From Archangium sp. (GTDB lineage Bacteria; Myxococcota; Myxococcia; Myxococcales; Myxococcaceae), in NCBI GenBank assembly GCA_031367385.1, contig JANLPS010000531.1:1-16795 (forward strand): a DNA stretch of 16,795 nucleotides. Reading direction: 5' to 3'. A program made the position numbers and the translations under genes. The notes beneath the pieces were generated by a model, which saw only the letters and a program-made list of their open reading frames with translations, was not told the DNA's origin and did not search any database. Below, in pieces: positions 5,965-13,230 of the stretch; position 1 is the stretch's first letter; each line of letters begins with the position of its first letter.

Positions 5965-6672
5965 ATGTCGCCTCCCTCAGCCTCGGCAGTTGTGACCGGG
6001 GGCATCGTCGCCCTCTCGGTACTCATGGTGCTGGCGTGGGTCTGGTTGCTGTGGCGGGCCAACCCACCGGGTCGCACGATGTTGACTGCGCGATTTGCGC
6101 TCGGTCTGCTCGGCTGGGCCGGGCTGTGGTGCGGCCTCGCGGCCGCGGGCGTGCTGTCGAACCTCGATCGCAAGCCGCCGCTCTTCATCACCCTGATCCC
6201 CCTGATGGTGATTCTGGTCGCGGTGCTCAGCCGCTCGGTCATCGGGGCCGTGCTGGCCTTCGAGACTCCGCTCTGGCTGCTCGTCGGTATGCAGGCGTTT
6301 CGATTACCGCTCGAGCTCGTGATGCACCAGGCGGCGGCCGAGGGCGTGATGCCCGCGCAGATGAGCTTCGGAGGCCTGAACTACGACATCGTCACCGGCG
6401 CCACCGCGTTGCTGCTCGGGCTCGTGCTGACCAAGCGAACGCTGCCCAAGCCCCTGCTCCTGGGGTGGAACGTGCTGGGCTCACTGCTGCTCGTGAACAT
6501 CGTCGTGGTGAGCGTGCTGAGTACTCCGCTGTTCGCGCGCTTCGGGTCTGACCCGGCGCACCTCAACACGTGGGTGATGTACGCACCTTTCGTCTGGTTA
6601 CCGGCGGTGCTGGTCGGCTCGGCCTTACTCGGCCACGTGTTGATCTTCAGAAAGCTGCTCTCGAAGACCTAG
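5965..6672 (+). CDS. Uncharacterised polytopic membrane protein (about 6-7 TM helices)
   Basis: Multiple hydrophobic segments and conserved-looking motifs (QAFRLPLE, GLNYDIVTG, PFVWLP). Divergent from the HxlR gene. Confidence 0.8.
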   Translation: MSPPSASAVVTGGIVALSVLMVLAWVWLLWRANPPGRTMLTARFALGLLGWAGLWCGLAAAGVLSNLDRKPPLFITLIPLMVILVAVLSRSVIGAVLAFETPLWLLVGMQAFRLPLELVMHQAAAEGVMPAQMSFGGLNYDIVTGATALLLGLVLTKRTLPKPLLLGWNVLGSLLLVNIVVVSVLSTPLFARFGSDPAHLNTWVMYAPFVWLPAVLVGSALLGHVLIFRKLLSKT

Positions 6673-7631
6673 CCTTTCTTCAGGCTCGCAGGCGCATTGG
6701 GGTGCCGGCTGAGCGCGGTGCGCAGCTGCGGCTGCCGAACGACCATGGGCTGCTTGAGCAGATGCGCGATCAACGCCGGGGGCGCCGCCGACCAATGCGC
6801 GATGTTCTGCACCAGCATCTGCGACGAATACGAGCGCCCGCACATCAACGCACTGGTCTTCCCGTCGACGGGTATGCCCGAGAGCCCCGCCAGCGAGCGA
6901 CCCTCGGTGGTGAAGATGAGCTCGATTTTCTCTTCTGAAGAAGCGGTGGCGAACCGGGCACGCAGCAGCTTCGCGGTGCTCGAGCGCGTCTGCGAAGTGG
7001 CCTCGCGACTCACCGTCAATTTCCACAGCTCGAGGAGGCGTTTGCTGGCGACCAGCCGGCGCAGTTGGCCTTCGTTGAGCTGTGGGTTTCGCCACAGCAT
7101 TCGCTGCACCTGCGCATCGCGCATCAAATCGGCGCGCACGATGAGCCACTCGAGGCCTGCTGAATTGCGATGGTGCGCGGCGATCAAGCGGGCTTGCTCG
7201 GGGCCCGCGTTGGGGTTCTGCAGCAAGGCGTGAATCACCGCTGGCAGGGGGTCGAAGCAGAGCGCTGAGAGCCGGGCGCCACGCTCCATCGAGGCATGGT
7301 GCGCGCGCTCATCGGCACCGAGATCGTGAAAGGCCTCACGGTACAGCTTGAGGTGCGACCCGCTCGGCTCGTCATCGAGCACCGGCGCCTCGCGCTCGTC
7401 TTCGCTCAACACGTGAGCCTCGGCCGCAACGAAAACCGGGGGCGCCACCACCGCCCCGGTCGCGACCAACTTCTCGACGATGGCGTCGACCCGTTCTCGG
7501 CTCAAGCCCGTGAGCAAAGACAGCTGCTCGACCGACGTCTGCCCATCGATTCGCGAAGAGACGAAACCCTCTTCAGCCGTCAGAGGCAGTGACCGAAGAT
7601 CAATCGGCGCAAGCTTCGGAGTCCACGACAT
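6669..7631 (-). CDS. Hypothetical protein: N-terminal wHTH-like segment and helical (leucine-rich-variant/HEAT-like) repeats
   Basis: LPLTAEEGFVSSRIDGQTSVEQL N-terminus. Repeated L..NP/HP motifs (LLQNPN, LWRNPQ, LSRHPN). GGAGG RBS precedes ATG 7631 and overlaps the dapE end. Confidence 0.75.
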   Translation of the reverse strand: MSWTPKLAPIDLRSLPLTAEEGFVSSRIDGQTSVEQLSLLTGLSRERVDAIVEKLVATGAVVAPPVFVAAEAHVLSEDEREAPVLDDEPSGSHLKLYREAFHDLGADERAHHASMERGARLSALCFDPLPAVIHALLQNPNAGPEQARLIAAHHRNSAGLEWLIVRADLMRDAQVQRMLWRNPQLNEGQLRRLVASKRLLELWKLTVSREATSQTRSSTAKLLRARFATASSEEKIELIFTTEGRSLAGLSGIPVDGKTSALMCGRSYSSQMLVQNIAHWSAAPPALIAHLLKQPMVVRQPQLRTALSRHPNAPASLKKG

Positions 7632-7633
7632 CG

Positions 7634-8698
7634 TCACCTCCCTTGAACCAACCTCCTCAACACCTCCAACGCCGCTCCCAGCGCCTCGACCGAAGCGCTC
7701 TCATCTCTCTGGTGCGCCTGAGCGGTCTCGCCCGGGCCGAAATTCACAGCATCAATCCCCAGCTCCGAGAACCGCGCCACGTCGGTCCACGCCTGTTTCG
7801 CCTCGGCCGGCCGCCCACTCAACTCAACCAGTTTCTGAAAATACGAATTCTGCGCACACACGGCCCCCGACGGGGCGACATCGGTGAACGTCACCGCCGC
7901 TCGCCCCGCCACGAAGGCCCGAACCTCAGCCTGCGCCTGCTGCACCGACTTGCCCGGAGCGAACCGGTAATTCACGTTCACGTCGAACGACTCAGGCACC
8001 ACGTTGCGAGCCCGGCCGCCCTTCGCGGTGGTCGCGCTCATCACCTCGAAGTACGAGAAGCCGTCGACCTGAACCAGCTTGCGCTCCATGGCGCCAAGCT
8101 CGCTCAGCACCGGGCCCGCCGCGTGAATCGCGTTCTTGCCCTGCCATGGCCTCGCCGAGTGCGCCGCCTGCCCCTCGAAGGTCAGCGTCGCGTGCAACGT
8201 GCCGACACAGCCGACCTGCACCGCGCCGTCGGTCGGCTCCATCGCGATCGCCAGCGCCGCCCGCTTCACCTCGGGAGCGGCGGCGAACAACGGCCCCAGC
8301 CCGCTCTCGAGGTACGGCCCCTCTTCGCGCTCGTAGAGCATCAACACCAGATTCACCGGCAACTCGGCCAACGTCACTTGCTCGACGAGCGCACACATCA
8401 CCGCCAGCGAGCCCTTCATGTCAGACGCGCCGAGCCCGTACAGCCGCCCGTTCTCGATTCGGGGCGGGTTGCCCGACGGGTGCGCGGGCACGGTATCGAG
8501 GTGCCCGACCAACACCACCATCGGCCTCGGGTCGACCCTGCGGCCGATCAGCAGCGAGTGCGAGAGCCGCAGAATTTCACTCGCCGCGAACCGCCCGCGG
8601 GCCCAGGCTTCGACCAAGTCAGCCAAGGCCTTCTCATCGCCGATGACCGACGGTACCCGCACCAGCTCGAGCGCCCGCTCGGCGAGCGAAGCACTCAC
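7634..8698 (-). CDS. dapE: Succinyl-diaminopimelate desuccinylase (M20 family)
   Basis: GHLDTVP, GASDMKG, REEG, MEPT, AHSARPW.G.NAIH, WTDVARF and GPG..AQAH..DE motifs. GTG start overlaps the dapD TGA (GTGA). Confidence 0.88.
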   Translation of the reverse strand: MSASLAERALELVRVPSVIGDEKALADLVEAWARGRFAASEILRLSHSLLIGRRVDPRPMVVLVGHLDTVPAHPSGNPPRIENGRLYGLGASDMKGSLAVMCALVEQVTLAELPVNLVLMLYEREEGPYLESGLGPLFAAAPEVKRAALAIAMEPTDGAVQVGCVGTLHATLTFEGQAAHSARPWQGKNAIHAAGPVLSELGAMERKLVQVDGFSYFEVMSATTAKGGRARNVVPESFDVNVNYRFAPGKSVQQAQAEVRAFVAGRAAVTFTDVAPSGAVCAQNSYFQKLVELSGRPAEAKQAWTDVARFSELGIDAVNFGPGETAQAHQRDESASVEALGAALEVLRRLVQGR

Positions 8699-9516
8699 AC
8701 CGCCACCGCGAAGTCGCGAAGCGCTTGATTCAACGAGGTTTTCTGGTCGGTCGACTTGCCGCGCGTGCCGATGATCAACGCACACGGCACCTGGTACGCC
8801 CCCGCGGGAAATTGCTTGGTCCTCGTCCCGGGGATCACCACGCTTCGCGGCGGCACTACGCCCTTGTGAATCACTTCTTTTTCTCCACTCACGTCGATGA
8901 TCTGCGTCGACGAGGTGAGCACCACGTTCGCGCCGAGCACCGCCTCTTCACCGACCACCACCCCCTCGACCACCACGCAGCGGCTGCCGATGAACGCGCC
9001 GTCTTCGATGATGACCGGTTGCGCGCTCGCGGGCTCGAGCACCCCGCCGATGCCGACGCCGCCTGACAAATGCACGTTGCGGCCGATTTGCGCGCAGCTG
9101 CCGACCGTGGCCCAGGTGTCGACCATCGTGCCCGCGCCGACCCAGGCGCCGATGTTCACGTAGGCGGGCATCACGATCACTGAGCGCTCGAGAAACGCGC
9201 CGTAGCGAATCGCTCCAGGAGGCACCAGGCGAACACCCGCCTCCGCCAGGCCTTTCTTGAGCGGTATCTTGTCGTGAAATTCGAAAGGAGGCGTCTCGGT
9301 GGTCTTCATCTCAGCGAGCGAGAAGTAGAGCAGTATCGCCTGCTTGACCCAGGCGTTGACCTCCCACCCGCCGACGGCCTTCTGCGCCACCCGAATGACG
9401 CCGCGGTCGAGCAGCGAGAGGGTCTCTTTGACCGCCATCGCGTAGAACGGCTCTTTGAGCTTTTCGCGATCAGCGAACGCCGCGTCGATTCGTTGCTTCA
9501 AGTCATCGAGGTTCAT
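8695..9516 (-). CDS. dapD: 2,3,4,5-tetrahydropyridine-2,6-dicarboxylate N-succinyltransferase
   Basis: W.VN.WVKQAILLYF, DKIPLK, R.VPP, MPAYVNIGA, MVDTWATVGSCAQIG..VHLSGGVGIGGVLEP and KTSLN..LR motifs. Confidence 0.96.
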   Translation of the reverse strand: MNLDDLKQRIDAAFADREKLKEPFYAMAVKETLSLLDRGVIRVAQKAVGGWEVNAWVKQAILLYFSLAEMKTTETPPFEFHDKIPLKKGLAEAGVRLVPPGAIRYGAFLERSVIVMPAYVNIGAWVGAGTMVDTWATVGSCAQIGRNVHLSGGVGIGGVLEPASAQPVIIEDGAFIGSRCVVVEGVVVGEEAVLGANVVLTSSTQIIDVSGEKEVIHKGVVPPRSVVIPGTRTKQFPAGAYQVPCALIIGTRGKSTDQKTSLNQALRDFAVAV

Positions 9517-9558
9517 GTCGGCCGGGGGTTGTAGCACCGGCCGCCGCTCGTGGTGAGC

Positions 9559-10035
9559 CTACGCCCGCGGCGAGCGGGCCGAACCACGTACGCGCCGCGC
9601 CAATGCCAACAACGCCAGCACCGCCATCGACCCAGGTACCGCCTGCGCTCCGCACCCGTACCTGGGTGGGGGCAGCCCGGTCTTCGTATCACCGACCAGG
9701 TTCGGGTCAGTGCCACTGCGCAGCTCGGCGATGTCGGTCAAGCCATCGCCATCACTGTCGACCGCGTCGGCCTCGAGCTTGGTGAGCGCTGTCTGCAGCG
9801 AGGCCTCGTTGTACGAGACCAGCCCCCTGGCCTTCATGCTCAGCGCGAACGGCGTAATCACCGTCGACGCGTCTTGTTTGTTGTTCTTGTGACACAGCGA
9901 GCACTGCTGCGAAGGCGGCTGTTTGAGCCCCAAATCGGTCGCGATCGCGAACGGGTACGTCGGAGTCGCCCCCGCCGCCCCCGCCGCGAGCGCCACCAGC
10001 ACCACCGCTGCGCGTGACACGCTGGCCGCTCTCAT
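9559..10035 (-). CDS. Small secreted CxxCH (putative monoheme c) protein with TSP3-like Ca-binding motif and MYXO-CTERM-like C-terminal anchor
   Basis: Signal peptide ending AAGA. CSLCH at 9889-9903. DSDGDGLTDIAEL..GTDP. Tail YGCGAQAVPGSMAVLALLALARRVR. ATG overlaps the upstream gene's stop (ATGA). Confidence 0.75.
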   Translation of the reverse strand: MRAASVSRAAVVLVALAAGAAGATPTYPFAIATDLGLKQPPSQQCSLCHKNNKQDASTVITPFALSMKARGLVSYNEASLQTALTKLEADAVDSDGDGLTDIAELRSGTDPNLVGDTKTGLPPPRYGCGAQAVPGSMAVLALLALARRVRGSARSPRA

Positions 10036-11219
10036 AAGAACACGTGCGCTTGCAAGAGAATGGTCACGCTGGTCGAGGGGTCTTGCCCGCCCGTGTGCGC
10101 CAGCCGCCGAATGATGCCGTCGACCCGAATCTCGGTGTGCGGCAACACGTACCAGGCCGCCGCCGCCCAGAACCCAAGGCTCGGGCCCCGCGCGCCATCA
10201 CCCTGGTGCATCGCCTCGAGCGACCCACTCACATGAATGCCCGGCACCACCTCGACATCGGTCTGCAACCAGCTCGCGAACCCGAACCGGTCGACCAGCC
10301 CCGGCTGCTGCCAGATGAGCAGGTCGGCTTCTCCCAAGAACGAGAGAATGTCGGTCGGCGAAAACCGCGCCATGAAGCCGTGGGCGTGGCGCACCTGGGG
10401 TTGCTGATTCACGAAGTCAGCCTGCGCGCTCGTGATCAGGCTCGAGAGCCCGACGTAGAGGTTCGAGCGAAACGCATATTCGGCGAACCCCGAATAGCCA
10501 CGCTCGCGATACGCGTCGGGCCCCAGCGAATAGTTGCCCAGAATGCCCATCACCTCGCCGCGCAGCACATCGGAGTTGTACGCCGCGCTCACCCCATACT
10601 GCTGCCCCAGGTTCACATCGGTCGCGGTCAACGCCCGCACCCACGAGGTGTGCTCGTTGTTGCGCAGCCCGAACGGCAGGTTGATTCGCCCCGCCCGCAC
10701 CATCACCGCCTCGTCGCTGAACAACGCGCCCGCCCAGAACTCGCGCGAGATCCACTGAACTCCGCAGGGGCTCGCGGTGCAGAGCGGCAGAATCGCACCC
10801 AGGCCCGCGTTGCGAATGCCCACGCCGGTCGTCACGTGGGCCACGAACCGGTCGACCTTCACCGTCGCATACAGGTCGCTCGCCATCACCAATGGGCGCA
10901 CCACGCTGCCCACCGGTATCAGCGCTCCACCGCGCAGGTTGCCCGAGAGGTTCACCGCTTCGGGCAGCTCGATGCCCCATAAGAAATTCGCCGTCTTCGA
11001 CACGTCTTGCTCTTCGCCCGGCTTGGGGCGGTCGAGCTTCCACCGCAGCAGGGTGTCTGACTGGGCGCGGCCGTACAGCGTCAGCTGCCCGCTGCCCGAG
11101 GGGTCGACGTGGCAAGCCGCACAGGTTTGATACCCGTGCTTCACCATCCACGGAAAGGCCAGGGCTGGGGTGGCGCTCGTGACGACAGCGCAGCAGACCA
11201 GCCAACCGATTGAACGCAT
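10032..11219 (-). CDS. Putative outer-membrane beta-barrel with N-terminal CxxCH (cytochrome c-porin fusion, Cyc2-like architecture)
   Basis: Signal peptide ending ALA. Mature N-terminus FPWMVKHGYQTCAACHVDPSGSGQLTLYGR. Amphipathic aromatic-rich strands (VRAGRINLPFG, YSGFAEYAF, FWAAAAWY). C-terminus ILLQAHVFL. Confidence 0.75.
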   Translation of the reverse strand: MRSIGWLVCCAVVTSATPALAFPWMVKHGYQTCAACHVDPSGSGQLTLYGRAQSDTLLRWKLDRPKPGEEQDVSKTANFLWGIELPEAVNLSGNLRGGALIPVGSVVRPLVMASDLYATVKVDRFVAHVTTGVGIRNAGLGAILPLCTASPCGVQWISREFWAGALFSDEAVMVRAGRINLPFGLRNNEHTSWVRALTATDVNLGQQYGVSAAYNSDVLRGEVMGILGNYSLGPDAYRERGYSGFAEYAFRSNLYVGLSSLITSAQADFVNQQPQVRHAHGFMARFSPTDILSFLGEADLLIWQQPGLVDRFGFASWLQTDVEVVPGIHVSGSLEAMHQGDGARGPSLGFWAAAAWYVLPHTEIRVDGIIRRLAHTGGQDPSTSVTILLQAHVFL

Positions 11220-11264
11220 GAGCCGCCTTTTCTACGTACCTTGAAGTCGCGAGTCGAGCGCTGC

Positions 11265-11807
11265 TTACTGGCCCAAAGAGAACTTGGCGTGAATCGCGAC
11301 GTCAGGCTTCACGGTCACACCCATGTAGCTGCGCACCTTCACGTCGTAGTCTTTCAAGTTGATGCTCCCGTTCGCGTCGACGTCGCACACCGTGCCTTTG
11401 CACGCGGTCTTGTACTTGAACGTGATGTCTTTGCTCTTGCCGTGCAGGGTGAAGGTGCCTTTGCCCTCGCCCTCGGCGGGCTTGCCGTCAGCCAGCACCT
11501 TGAGTGACTCGTCGGGTATCGAGAGCGAAATGTCGGGGTACTTTTCCGACTCCAGGTCTTCAGACATGTGCCGGTTGCGCAGGCCGATGCCGGTGTCGAG
11601 GTCTTTGATCAACACCGTGATGAGGGTGTTCTTGCCGTCGTCTTTGGCCACCATCTTGGCCGTCTTGCCGTCGAACTTGAGGCCGACGGTGCCGGTGGCG
11701 GTGAACCCGACCTCGGGCTCTCCTTTGACCGACCAGCCGGCGAATGCGGTGAGTGCGGCACCTACACAGGCCATCAGAACCCAGCGAGACAGTGTGAGCG
11801 GCTTCAT
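11265..11807 (-). CDS. YceI-family periplasmic lipid/polyisoprenoid-binding protein
   Basis: Signal peptide ending AFA. LDTGIGLRNRHM..LESEKYP.I, G.FTLHGKSK and INLKDYDV motifs typical of YceI. AAAGGT RBS upstream. Confidence 0.88.
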   Translation of the reverse strand: MKPLTLSRWVLMACVGAALTAFAGWSVKGEPEVGFTATGTVGLKFDGKTAKMVAKDDGKNTLITVLIKDLDTGIGLRNRHMSEDLESEKYPDISLSIPDESLKVLADGKPAEGEGKGTFTLHGKSKDITFKYKTACKGTVCDVDANGSINLKDYDVKVRSYMGVTVKPDVAIHAKFSLGQ

Positions 11808-12000: not shown

Positions 12001-13230
12001 ATGACGGTGAGTTTTGACGAATTCGCGCAGCGGGCCATGTCCTTCCTGCGCTCCCAGGGTGAGACGCGAAAGCTCGTCGTTGATGAGAAGCGCGGCTTTT
12101 TGATCATCGGCGAATCGCCGGGCCTGGTGAGCTTCGCGTACTTGCGCCACGCGTTCGGTGAATACAAAACCTCGCTCCCCTCTGAGTACGACAAGCTGCT
12201 CCACCGCCGCCTGTGGACGGTGATTTCACCCGACGCCAAGCCCAGCAAAGAGGTGCTCTACCGGTCGGTGGTGCCCCGGCTGCGCGACCGGGCCTGGTTC
12301 TCGGCCGTTCGCCGCCAGGCCGAGCTCGAGCTGGGGGCCGACGAGGCCGCGATTGAAGAGGTGATGCTGCCTCACCGGGCGGTCAACTCCGAGCTGTCGG
12401 TGCACCTGGCCTACGAGCTGCCCACCTCGATGATGGAGCTGGGCCCCGACCGCCTGCGCGCCTGGCACACCACCTTCGACGAGCTGCTCGAGGTCTCGAA
12501 GAAGAACCTGCGCGCCCGCTCGACCACGCCGTTCGAGAACCCCGAGCCCGGCATGTTCGTCTCGCCGTACAAAGACTCGTACGACGCCACTCGCATCATT
12601 TTGCCAGAGCTGTTCGAAGCCCTGAAGGTGAAGGGCAAGCCGGTGATCATCGCGCCCACGCACGACATCGTTCTGGTCACCGGTGATGAAGACGCCGAAG
12701 GCCTCGAGCGCCTGGGCCTGTGGGCAGAGCAGGGCCTGCTCGAGCCGCGGCCCAATTCGGCGGTGACCTTTCGGCTCGAGAATCGTGGCTGGCGGCCCTG
12801 GTTGCCGAATCGAGATCACCCCGCGTACACCAAGCTCAAGCTGCTGCAGCTGCAGACCGTGGCCTCGGCGTACTCGCGGCAAAAAGAGGTGCTCGAGGCG
12901 CTGCTCGAGGCCAACGGGCACGACATCTTCGTGGCCAACATGCGGGCCTTTCGCGCGACCGGAGGCGATATCTTCACCAGCTGCTCGTGGACCGAGGGCG
13001 TCGAAGCCCTGTTGCCCGAGACCGATCGCCTCGACTTCGTTCGCCTGCCGCCCGATGGAGGCGAAGCTGCGAACGGCACCGTCTGGTCGACCAGCTGGGC
13101 CGTCGCCGTGCGCACCTTGGGCACCCAGATGCAGCCGACCGGTGACGTGCCCGAGCGCTGGCGCGTTCGCGGGTTTCCAACCGATGCGCAGCTCGAGCAG
13201 ATGTCGCTCGAGGGCGCGATGCCCACGTAG
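12001..13230 (+). CDS. Hypothetical protein, DUF1444-like
   Basis: GC-biased codon usage from ATG 12001. Motifs VVPRLR, LAYELPTSM, L..W....DEL...A/SKKNL, SYDATRIIL and APTHDIVLVTG resemble DUF1444-type proteins. The upstream ORF extension is antisense to yceI and was discarded. Confidence 0.7.
   Translation: MTVSFDEFAQRAMSFLRSQGETRKLVVDEKRGFLIIGESPGLVSFAYLRHAFGEYKTSLPSEYDKLLHRRLWTVISPDAKPSKEVLYRSVVPRLRDRAWFSAVRRQAELELGADEAAIEEVMLPHRAVNSELSVHLAYELPTSMMELGPDRLRAWHTTFDELLEVSKKNLRARSTTPFENPEPGMFVSPYKDSYDATRIILPELFEALKVKGKPVIIAPTHDIVLVTGDEDAEGLERLGLWAEQGLLEPRPNSAVTFRLENRGWRPWLPNRDHPAYTKLKLLQLQTVASAYSRQKEVLEALLEANGHDIFVANMRAFRATGGDIFTSCSWTEGVEALLPETDRLDFVRLPPDGGEAANGTVWSTSWAVAVRTLGTQMQPTGDVPERWRVRGFPTDAQLEQMSLEGAMPT

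Follow-up and report, generated by a model that had tools for sequence, protein, structure and literature searches.

A conserved myxobacterial gene trio joins a YceI protein to a Cyc2-like cytochrome-porin and a small monoheme protein

What might a cell do with a YceI lipocalin, a predicted outer-membrane barrel with a heme-attachment site and a small putative heme protein that are encoded side by side? The question arises from a 16,795-nucleotide stretch of Archangium sp. (contig JANLPS010000531.1 of assembly GCA_031367385.1), referred to here in its whole length as the window, in which three adjacent genes on the minus strand encode these proteins. An initial annotation of the DNA had read them as a candidate envelope-spanning redox module, with the products placed in the periplasm, the outer membrane and at the cell surface. 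We find that the three genes are a conserved unit in many myxobacteria, and that they amount to a real variant of the cytochrome-porin design, conserved, apparently undescribed and equipped with new partners. The function that we tentatively favour is a relay of electrons from a YceI-borne quinol to the heme of the barrel.

The three genes and their conservation

Direct reading of the window confirmed the three co-oriented open reading frames (ORFs), the 45-bp gap, the ATGA overlap and the two heme-attachment motifs (CAACH and CSLCH) that had been described. The GC content at third codon positions (GC3) is 0.85, 0.85 and 0.83 across the three genes, consistent with real genes. Signal peptides were assigned by sequence pattern, without a predictor. 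The features of the locus are as follows.

11265–11807, minus strand: yceI, 180 amino acids (aa); YceI lipocalin of a distinct subfamily, predicted periplasmic (PF04264 and a locus-built profile)
11220–11264, minus strand: 45-bp gap between yceI and the barrel gene, read from the sequence
10032–11219, minus strand: monoheme cytochrome-porin fusion, 395 aa, with signal peptide (residues 1–21), heme mini-domain, linker and predicted 16-strand OprP-like barrel
11109–11123, minus strand: CAACH heme-attachment motif, barrel protein residues 33–37, 11 residues past the predicted signal-peptidase site
10884–10886, minus strand: Met112, near-invariant residue of the barrel, candidate metal or heme ligand
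10650–10652, minus strand: His190, near-invariant loop residue of the barrel, candidate metal or heme ligand
10044–10046, minus strand: His392, in the last strand of the barrel, best candidate for a sixth heme ligand
10032–10035, minus strand: ATGA stop/start overlap of the barrel and small genes, read from the sequence
9559–10035, minus strand: small monoheme protein, 158 aa, with signal peptide, 90-aa helical heme domain containing a TSP3 loop, linker and MYXO-CTERM-like tail
9889–9903, minus strand: CSLCH heme-attachment motif, small protein residues 45–49 (sequence and conservation)
9700–9759, minus strand: bacterial TSP3 repeat, predicted calcium-binding loop (PF18884, 28.6 bits, cut-off 25)
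9589–9657, minus strand: Gly-Cys/hydrophobic/Arg tail, MYXO-CTERM-like (TIGR03382, 14 bits, cut-off 15.85; tail pattern)

The proposed synteny holds across relatives. A GTDB scan found 315 barrel relatives, the best 80 of which were examined as loci; the range of the unit outside Myxococcota rests on these. In 72 of the 80, the small gene directly follows that of the barrel, and in 52 all three genes stand together; the 4-nucleotide overlap between barrel and small gene recurs in 36 of the 72. Barrel homologues numbered 673 in one search and formed 375 clusters at E values of up to 1e-30 in another. The nearest named relatives among the barrel matches listed are Myxococcaceae and Archangium records, and all three genes are present in the complete genome of a named strain, Archangium minus Cbm 6 (L102).

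Some barrel match occurs in 79 of 301 genomes of the phylum. At a barrel E value below 1e-100, a threshold chosen after the fact, and a small-protein E value of up to 1e-12, the small protein and a barrel of full length mark an identical set of 59 genomes; the other 20 carry distant or partial barrels (including an unpublished genome, G204, counted only). The distribution is patchy (0 of 19, 2 of 29, 6 of 6 and 10 of 10 in four genera), a pattern that fits gain and loss as one unit. Covariation between the proteins over 90 paired rows was uninformative (top z score of 6.0, against 5.2–5.9 in five shuffles). The host genome, 98% complete in 562 contigs, carries the barrel gene in a single copy; it also encodes CcmE and two cytochrome c assembly proteins, so that the cytochrome c maturation genes looked for in connection with the trio are present.

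The YceI protein, the barrel and the small heme protein

The first gene product is a YceI protein, as first proposed, with PF04264 at 55.5 bits against a cut-off of 23.7. A profile built from these loci recovers it at E = 7e-71, and five further YceI-like ORFs in the host genome at values between 1e-17 and 3e-8. Matches to sequences in the PDB are weak, with a periplasmic polyisoprenoid-binding protein at E = 5e-4. Most YceI crystal structures contain an isoprenoid and some contain ubiquinone-8, and proteins of this family bind hydrophobic ligands of varied kinds (PMC9113575). The BcnA–LcoA antioxidant system, like the trio, ties a YceI protein (BcnA) to a heme protein (LcoA, a cytochrome b561); the pair has been linked to defence against lipid peroxidation, and an electron relay through the YceI-bound quinone has been proposed (PMC9113575). 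LcoA is an inner-membrane b561, whereas the heme partner in the trio is a predicted outer-membrane c-type porin, and no cytochrome b561 gene stands among the scanned neighbours in the window (dapD, dapE and a DUF1444-like gene). Cellvibrio Cbp2D carries YceI-like and cytochrome c domains on one chain; Cbp2D/Cbp2E resemble the trio in combining YceI-like quinone-binding and monoheme cytochrome c domains, with a proposed role in extracellular electron supply, but are multidomain proteins with a carbohydrate-binding module and without a porin (PMC8981238, PMC12542752). By analogy with these systems, a quinone may be the ligand of the YceI protein in the window. A search for longer fused YceI forms found none; one YceI–barrel read-through (P0236), in which a signal peptide lies internally and the end is garbled, was set aside as a probable assembly error.

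The barrel protein of the window has no match in Pfam, NCBIfam or a PDB sequence search, and 13 of 59 homologues weakly match Porin_O_P. Its AlphaFold model (mean predicted local distance difference test score (pLDDT) of 85.4) contains a short helical N-terminal heme segment followed by 16 strands, as counted on the model. The top structural match is OprP (2o4v; Z = 25.6, root-mean-square deviation of 2.9, 297 aligned), and further 16-strand porins follow at Z = 24.4–24.0, in support of the cytochrome-porin architecture that had been proposed. The protein contains a single CxxCH, and 78 of the 80 barrel matches taken without a motif filter carry the motif, the remaining two being cut by a contig end. 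Both this motif and that of the small protein are invariant in 90 of 90 aligned rows, which were preselected for the motif; the expected conservation of the heme-attachment sites is thus borne out.

Conservation extends well beyond the motif. Across 205 homologues, the signal-peptidase region follows an Ala-x-Ala pattern (Ala in 196 and 203), CxxCH is preceded by Ala at −12 (203), Tyr or Phe at −11 (199) and Pro at −10 (178), and its first Cys lies 11 residues past the Ala-x-Ala site in nearly all. The barrel alignment has 32 invariant columns, 9 of which are Arg. Met112 and His190 are each kept in 99% of 83 representatives and in 16 of 22 distant relatives, and are missing jointly in the same six distant rows, five of which form one branch; His392 is kept in 96% and in 21 of the 22. 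Met112 and His190 are candidate metal or heme ligands, and His392 is the best candidate for a sixth heme ligand. Some homologues (P0175, P0177, P0190, P0192 and P0205) carry acidic low-complexity insertions of up to approximately 200 residues between the heme segment and the barrel, which makes the heme domain a tethered module.

This design recalls the fused cytochrome-porins Cyc2 and Cyt572 (PMC8406198, PMC13741234, PMC13692758). As in Cyc2, which has been described with a 16-strand, OprP-type design (Keffer et al., PMC8406198), a signal peptide is followed by one N-terminal CxxCH at an equal distance from the cleavage site, and a 16-strand OprO/OprP-like barrel is predicted; the protein has 395 aa, compared with a Cyc2 minimum of 365 aa. 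The Cyc2 motif AXPXFAR[Q/K][T/Y] before CXXCH is absent: its register, Ala and Pro are kept, but the window reads MVKHG at the FAR[QK][TY] positions and the family consensus does not restore them. The PXL motif four residues past CXXCH is also absent, the barrel family having DPSGxGxL and a longer loop. Cyc2 barrels are poorly conserved (PMC8406198), whereas the barrel of this family is strongly conserved, with Met112, His190 and His392, and its partners are a YceI protein and a MYXO-CTERM-like monoheme protein.

We compared the family with 30 Cyc2 proteins from the same phylum, a set defined by motif and not by experiment. The barrel family profile detected none of the 30 (best E = 0.21), and the direct profile–profile score of 13–34 falls inside the range of unrelated CxxCH controls. 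A profile of the 22 distant relatives aligns to both groups, with a probability of 100 over 349 columns to the barrel family and of 96.8 over 320 columns to the motif-defined Cyc2. In a tree built quickly and rooted at its midpoint, with 61 rows that comprise all 22 distant relatives, half of the motif-defined Cyc2 and one quarter of the barrel family, the motif-defined Cyc2 form a separate branch. On these alignments the barrel is a distant Cyc2 relative of the same design, linked through an intermediate group; because the signature motifs are absent and the link runs only through that group, we describe it as Cyc2-like and do not assign it to Cyc2. The figshare Cyc2 alignment or the FeGenie hidden Markov models might already include the barrel family. 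Motif-defined Cyc2 genes (L196–L225) occur in 26 of the 301 phylum genomes, mostly in families that lack the trio operon; in one genus the two occur together in all 5 genomes.

The same tree bears on the history of the unit. The barrel family is one branch (support 98) within a branch of support 99 that includes nine distant barrels; at eight of these, a divergent yceI lies immediately upstream of the barrel gene and the DNA examined contains no small gene. The 13 distant barrels outside the 99-support branch have no yceI in the DNA examined. Because eight of the nine distant barrels of the shared branch have yceI without the small gene, YceI and the barrel are likely to be the ancestral core, to which the small protein, known only in this barrel family, would have been added later. 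The three-part unit first described is therefore conserved, but its older core probably has two parts. Five of the 13 outlying loci were inspected gene by gene: all adjoin c-type cytochrome genes (mono- and diheme), one with a Rieske protein and cytochrome b, and one with NrfD and an Fe–S protein. By analogy, this suggests that YceI takes the place of the quinol-linked module of the sister loci. Among the operons of distant barrels, L157:4426-9307 and L035:64-7856 contain mono- and diheme cytochromes, a Rieske protein with cytochrome b, or lie near NrfD and Fe–S genes.

The small protein carries the TSP3 repeat, above the PF18884 cut-off, within a 90-residue mature domain that is modelled as compact (pLDDT of 95.9). 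Besides CxxCH, a GT-x3-PFG segment, the TSP3 Asp residues (86–92%) and a final PN are conserved. No second Met or His is conserved (Met67 occurs in 44%), which would leave the heme five-coordinate unless an unusual ligand, or a borrowed one, takes the sixth position. The tail identified initially as MYXO-CTERM stands as a pattern: Gly-Cys, hydrophobic and basic parts are present in 74 of 74 copies in a pattern check, and the host genome encodes the myxosortase MrtX (NF040593, 349.9 bits, cut-off 180). Against the family model, the window protein scores slightly below the TIGR03382 cut-off; among 12 homologues, 1 passes the MYXO-CTERM cut-off and 5 more match TIGR03382 or TIGR03901 below it. 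Cell-surface location of a MYXO-CTERM protein has been demonstrated for TraA (PMC11980579), and by extension the small protein is likely to be surface-anchored. TraA-type proteins share the Cys/hydrophobic/Arg tail; the small protein differs in its cargo, a c-type heme domain, and the words 'cytochrome' and 'heme' are absent from the main text of PMC11980579.

In a fold search against 48,161 chains, the small-protein model reached a best Z of 2.7, and Foldseek gave no match at E = 0.001, a weak outcome that is no proof of a new fold. Its PDB sequence matches, to TAL effectors through summed weak repeat matches, were dismissed as chance. The heme domain also begins other proteins. One example is the GEGP diheme family NF041762, the model of which scores 21.5 bits against the small protein (threshold of 300) and shares only model positions 47–115 with it; another is a 472-aa ORF on host contig C11. 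This secreted ORF (L233:4422-5840) has weak DUF1549 and DUF1588 similarity beyond the relative of the small heme domain at its start, and lies near a DUF1501-like gene. Compared with the Cyc2 heme domain, the small domain aligns with a probability of 86 over 25 columns (controls, 22 and 14), and single-sequence scores overlap the background (median of 8.7, compared with a 95th percentile of 7.8); homology between the two is suggestive only.

Window positions 9697–9966 have a language-model feature score of 0.92–0.93 to bacterial clusters that bear Temptin_C (PF24784). The domain itself has no Pfam hit, and PF24784 is not one of the 25 displayed out of 37 Pfam families for 90 members. Should the resemblance prove real, heme binding may be a property of temptin-like domains.

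Of the 80 loci, 11 also encode a di- or triheme lipoprotein, and in 5 (L077:8139-9173, L093, L098:8170-9117, L101 and L104) it forms an in-frame fusion with the small protein. In these fusions the Cys/hydrophobic/Arg tail is followed by a second hydrophobic stretch that ends in Cys and then by the diheme domain; the product may be a polyprotein that is cut into two lipid-anchored cytochromes. A search for longer fused small-protein forms found none, but it also missed a known in-frame fusion type, so the blank is weak. In one genus (L228:3692-5015, L229 and L230), a triheme lipoprotein gene and the small gene are paired apart from the yceI–barrel pairs. The multiheme lipoprotein was rejected as an obligate fourth part: it was not found in the host genome, and 88 of the 301 genomes have it without the barrel.

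A possible redox relay and its rivals

Myxobacteria use menaquinone. We hypothesize, at a probability of roughly 0.45, that the trio is an outward electron relay fed by quinol. YceI would ferry the quinol through the periplasm to the heme of the barrel, and this heme would plug the inner, periplasmic mouth of the outer-membrane pore. From there, electrons would move either to a small acceptor within the pore or to the small heme protein, which is probably anchored at the surface. A stepping stone inside the pore, either a diffusible mediator or a metal site at Met112 and His190, would take the place of direct heme-to-heme contact. The likely use would be to keep the outer membrane and surface reduced, through oxidant quenching or the reduction of metals or surface enzymes, and not growth on iron. 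Covalent heme, the three locations, the outward direction and the stepping stone are what we infer; YceI would link the quinone pool to the barrel heme because of the YceI ligand precedents and the pattern of the sister operons. Synteny, co-inheritance across genomes, yceI beside the distant barrels of the 99-support branch and cytochromes beside the sister barrels all argue for such a relay.

Several points weigh against it. The yceI gene is missing beside 20 of the 72 barrel–small pairs (in 16 there is room upstream but the locus has no yceI, 2 are truncated at a contig end and 2 have a more distant yceI), and 8 of the 80 barrels have no adjacent small gene, six of them with neither partner despite room on both sides. 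Co-occurrence follows from linkage and shared descent and is therefore not independent evidence, and the argument for an outward direction draws on few sister loci and on a tree that was built quickly. A small protein that lacks a second Met or His would fit a ligand-binding or catalytic heme equally well, the multiheme lipoprotein is not found in the host and is common in genomes without the barrel, and access of a YceI-buried octaprenyl quinol to the barrel heme is an assumption. The direction of electron flow is unreadable from sequence because measured Cyc2 potentials differ so widely, including +208 and −130 mV (PMC8406198, PMC13692758).

The barrel might instead import a specific small or lipophilic ligand that is captured by the surface protein and collected by YceI, with the hemes acting as a redox gate or changing the redox state of the ligand. 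Such gated uptake would suit a barrel with many invariant columns and Arg residues, unusual beside the poorly conserved Cyc2 barrels (PMC8406198), as well as the best structural match, OprP, a substrate-selective porin, the varied hydrophobic ligands of YceI proteins (PMC9113575), and a heme domain on an insertion-tolerant linker, as a movable plug would be. All other recurring partners are cytochromes or respiratory proteins, however, and the commonest neighbour clusters contain no conspicuous transporter or catabolic gene; we consider uptake unlikely. Somewhat less probable is a metal oxidase of the Cyc2 type, in which dissolved Fe(II) or Mn(II) would enter the pore and be oxidised at the heme, electrons would run inward to a YceI-bound quinone and the surface protein would bind or escort the metal. 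The shared architecture (signal peptide, CxxCH spacing, 16 strands and OprP match) and the full-length profile link through the intermediate group speak for it, as do Cyc2 matches reported in Myxococcota genomes (10.1101/2022.03.26.485925). The absence of both signature motifs, the failure of the family profile to detect any of the motif-defined Cyc2 and their separate branch speak against it. The hosts include Archangium minus, a heterotroph. Keffer et al. also caution against assigning iron oxidation to distant Cyc2 homologues (PMC8406198).

Read as a direct heme-to-heme wire, the minimal electron-transfer conduit of the initial annotation is improbable. In that arrangement the surface protein would dock in the outer mouth of the barrel, and the hemes would exchange electrons directly with solids or other cells, which would agree with the co-inheritance of the genes for the two heme proteins (59 of 59 genomes), their frequent 4-nucleotide overlap and the compactness of the small domain. 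The published Cyc2 model, however, places its single heme on the periplasmic side, unable to span the 16-strand barrel (PMC8406198), and the eight distant yceI–barrel pairs lack the small gene in the DNA examined. The MtrCAB and MtoAB conduits have the periplasm, outer-membrane and surface layout proposed for the trio, but these wires are 26-strand barrels filled with decaheme chains (PMC8406198); the trio has 16 predicted strands and two single hemes, with one CxxCH in each heme protein and no 26-strand barrel with a multiheme insert. Complex prediction for the barrel, the small protein and two hemes scored 0.00 in both runs, with controls that did not fold either, and speaks neither for nor against docking.

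The relay can be extended to a joint reading that we consider speculative and, as a whole, rather unlikely. Quinol borne by a soluble lipocalin would take the place of any periplasmic cytochrome and give up its electrons to a heme plug of the Cyc2 type, from which a metal site at Met112 and His190 would bridge to the surface cytochrome. The latter would itself be related to the Cyc2 heme domain, as a separate protein stabilised by calcium, and usable as a soluble stand-in for finding the sixth ligand of Cyc2, possibly the N-terminal amine. This ligand is suggested because the CxxCH spacing is fixed and cytochrome f offers a precedent. The mature N terminus of Cyt572 points the same way (PMC13741234). 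One Cyc2 gives a low-spin, two-ligand electron paramagnetic resonance signal, yet AlphaFold 3 models provide one ligand (PMC13692758, PMC13741234).

No description of the trio was found in the literature searched, which leaves supplements and most subscription papers outside it, and no paper there treats Cyc2 together with YceI or with cytochrome f ligation. As far as this search goes, the novelty lies in the combination and not in the cytochrome-porin fusion, which has a precedent in the Cyc2 design. Cyc2-type proteins serve as markers of iron oxidation, yet they raise questions about the roles of distant homologues, their redox partners and the sixth heme ligand. To these questions the barrel family brings a named partner set, candidate ligands, a small and confidently modelled heme domain and a named strain. 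If the relay is true, a quinone-carrying protein links the respiratory chain to the outer membrane, and the Cyc2 design has a non-iron use in predatory and soil bacteria.

Neighbouring genes and other host cytochromes

Approximately 40 bp downstream of the trio, on the same strand, lie dapD and dapE (window 7634–9537), an arrangement that recurs in 31 loci; the window DapE passes the Gram-positive-type model TIGR01900. On the other side, a divergent gene of 409 aa (12001–13230, plus strand) has weak DUF1444 similarity, and relatives of it precede the operon in several closely related genomes. Two further ORFs, of 322 aa (6669–7637, minus strand) and 235 aa (5965–6672, plus strand), have no Pfam match. 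A promoter scan of the window found no promoter-like site and terminator-like sites no commoner than chance, no RNA holder is listed for the window, and plasmid and viral-contig searches gave no match.

In close relatives, a monoheme class I cytochrome c (approximately 30 loci) and a diheme peroxidase (16 loci) are encoded a few kilobases upstream, for example in L021:139-4167; this may be plain shared descent. By a crude filter, the host genome contains approximately 126 candidate c-type cytochrome ORFs, and its contigs C193 and C212 carry ORFs with 29, 10, 10 and 10 CxxCH motifs.

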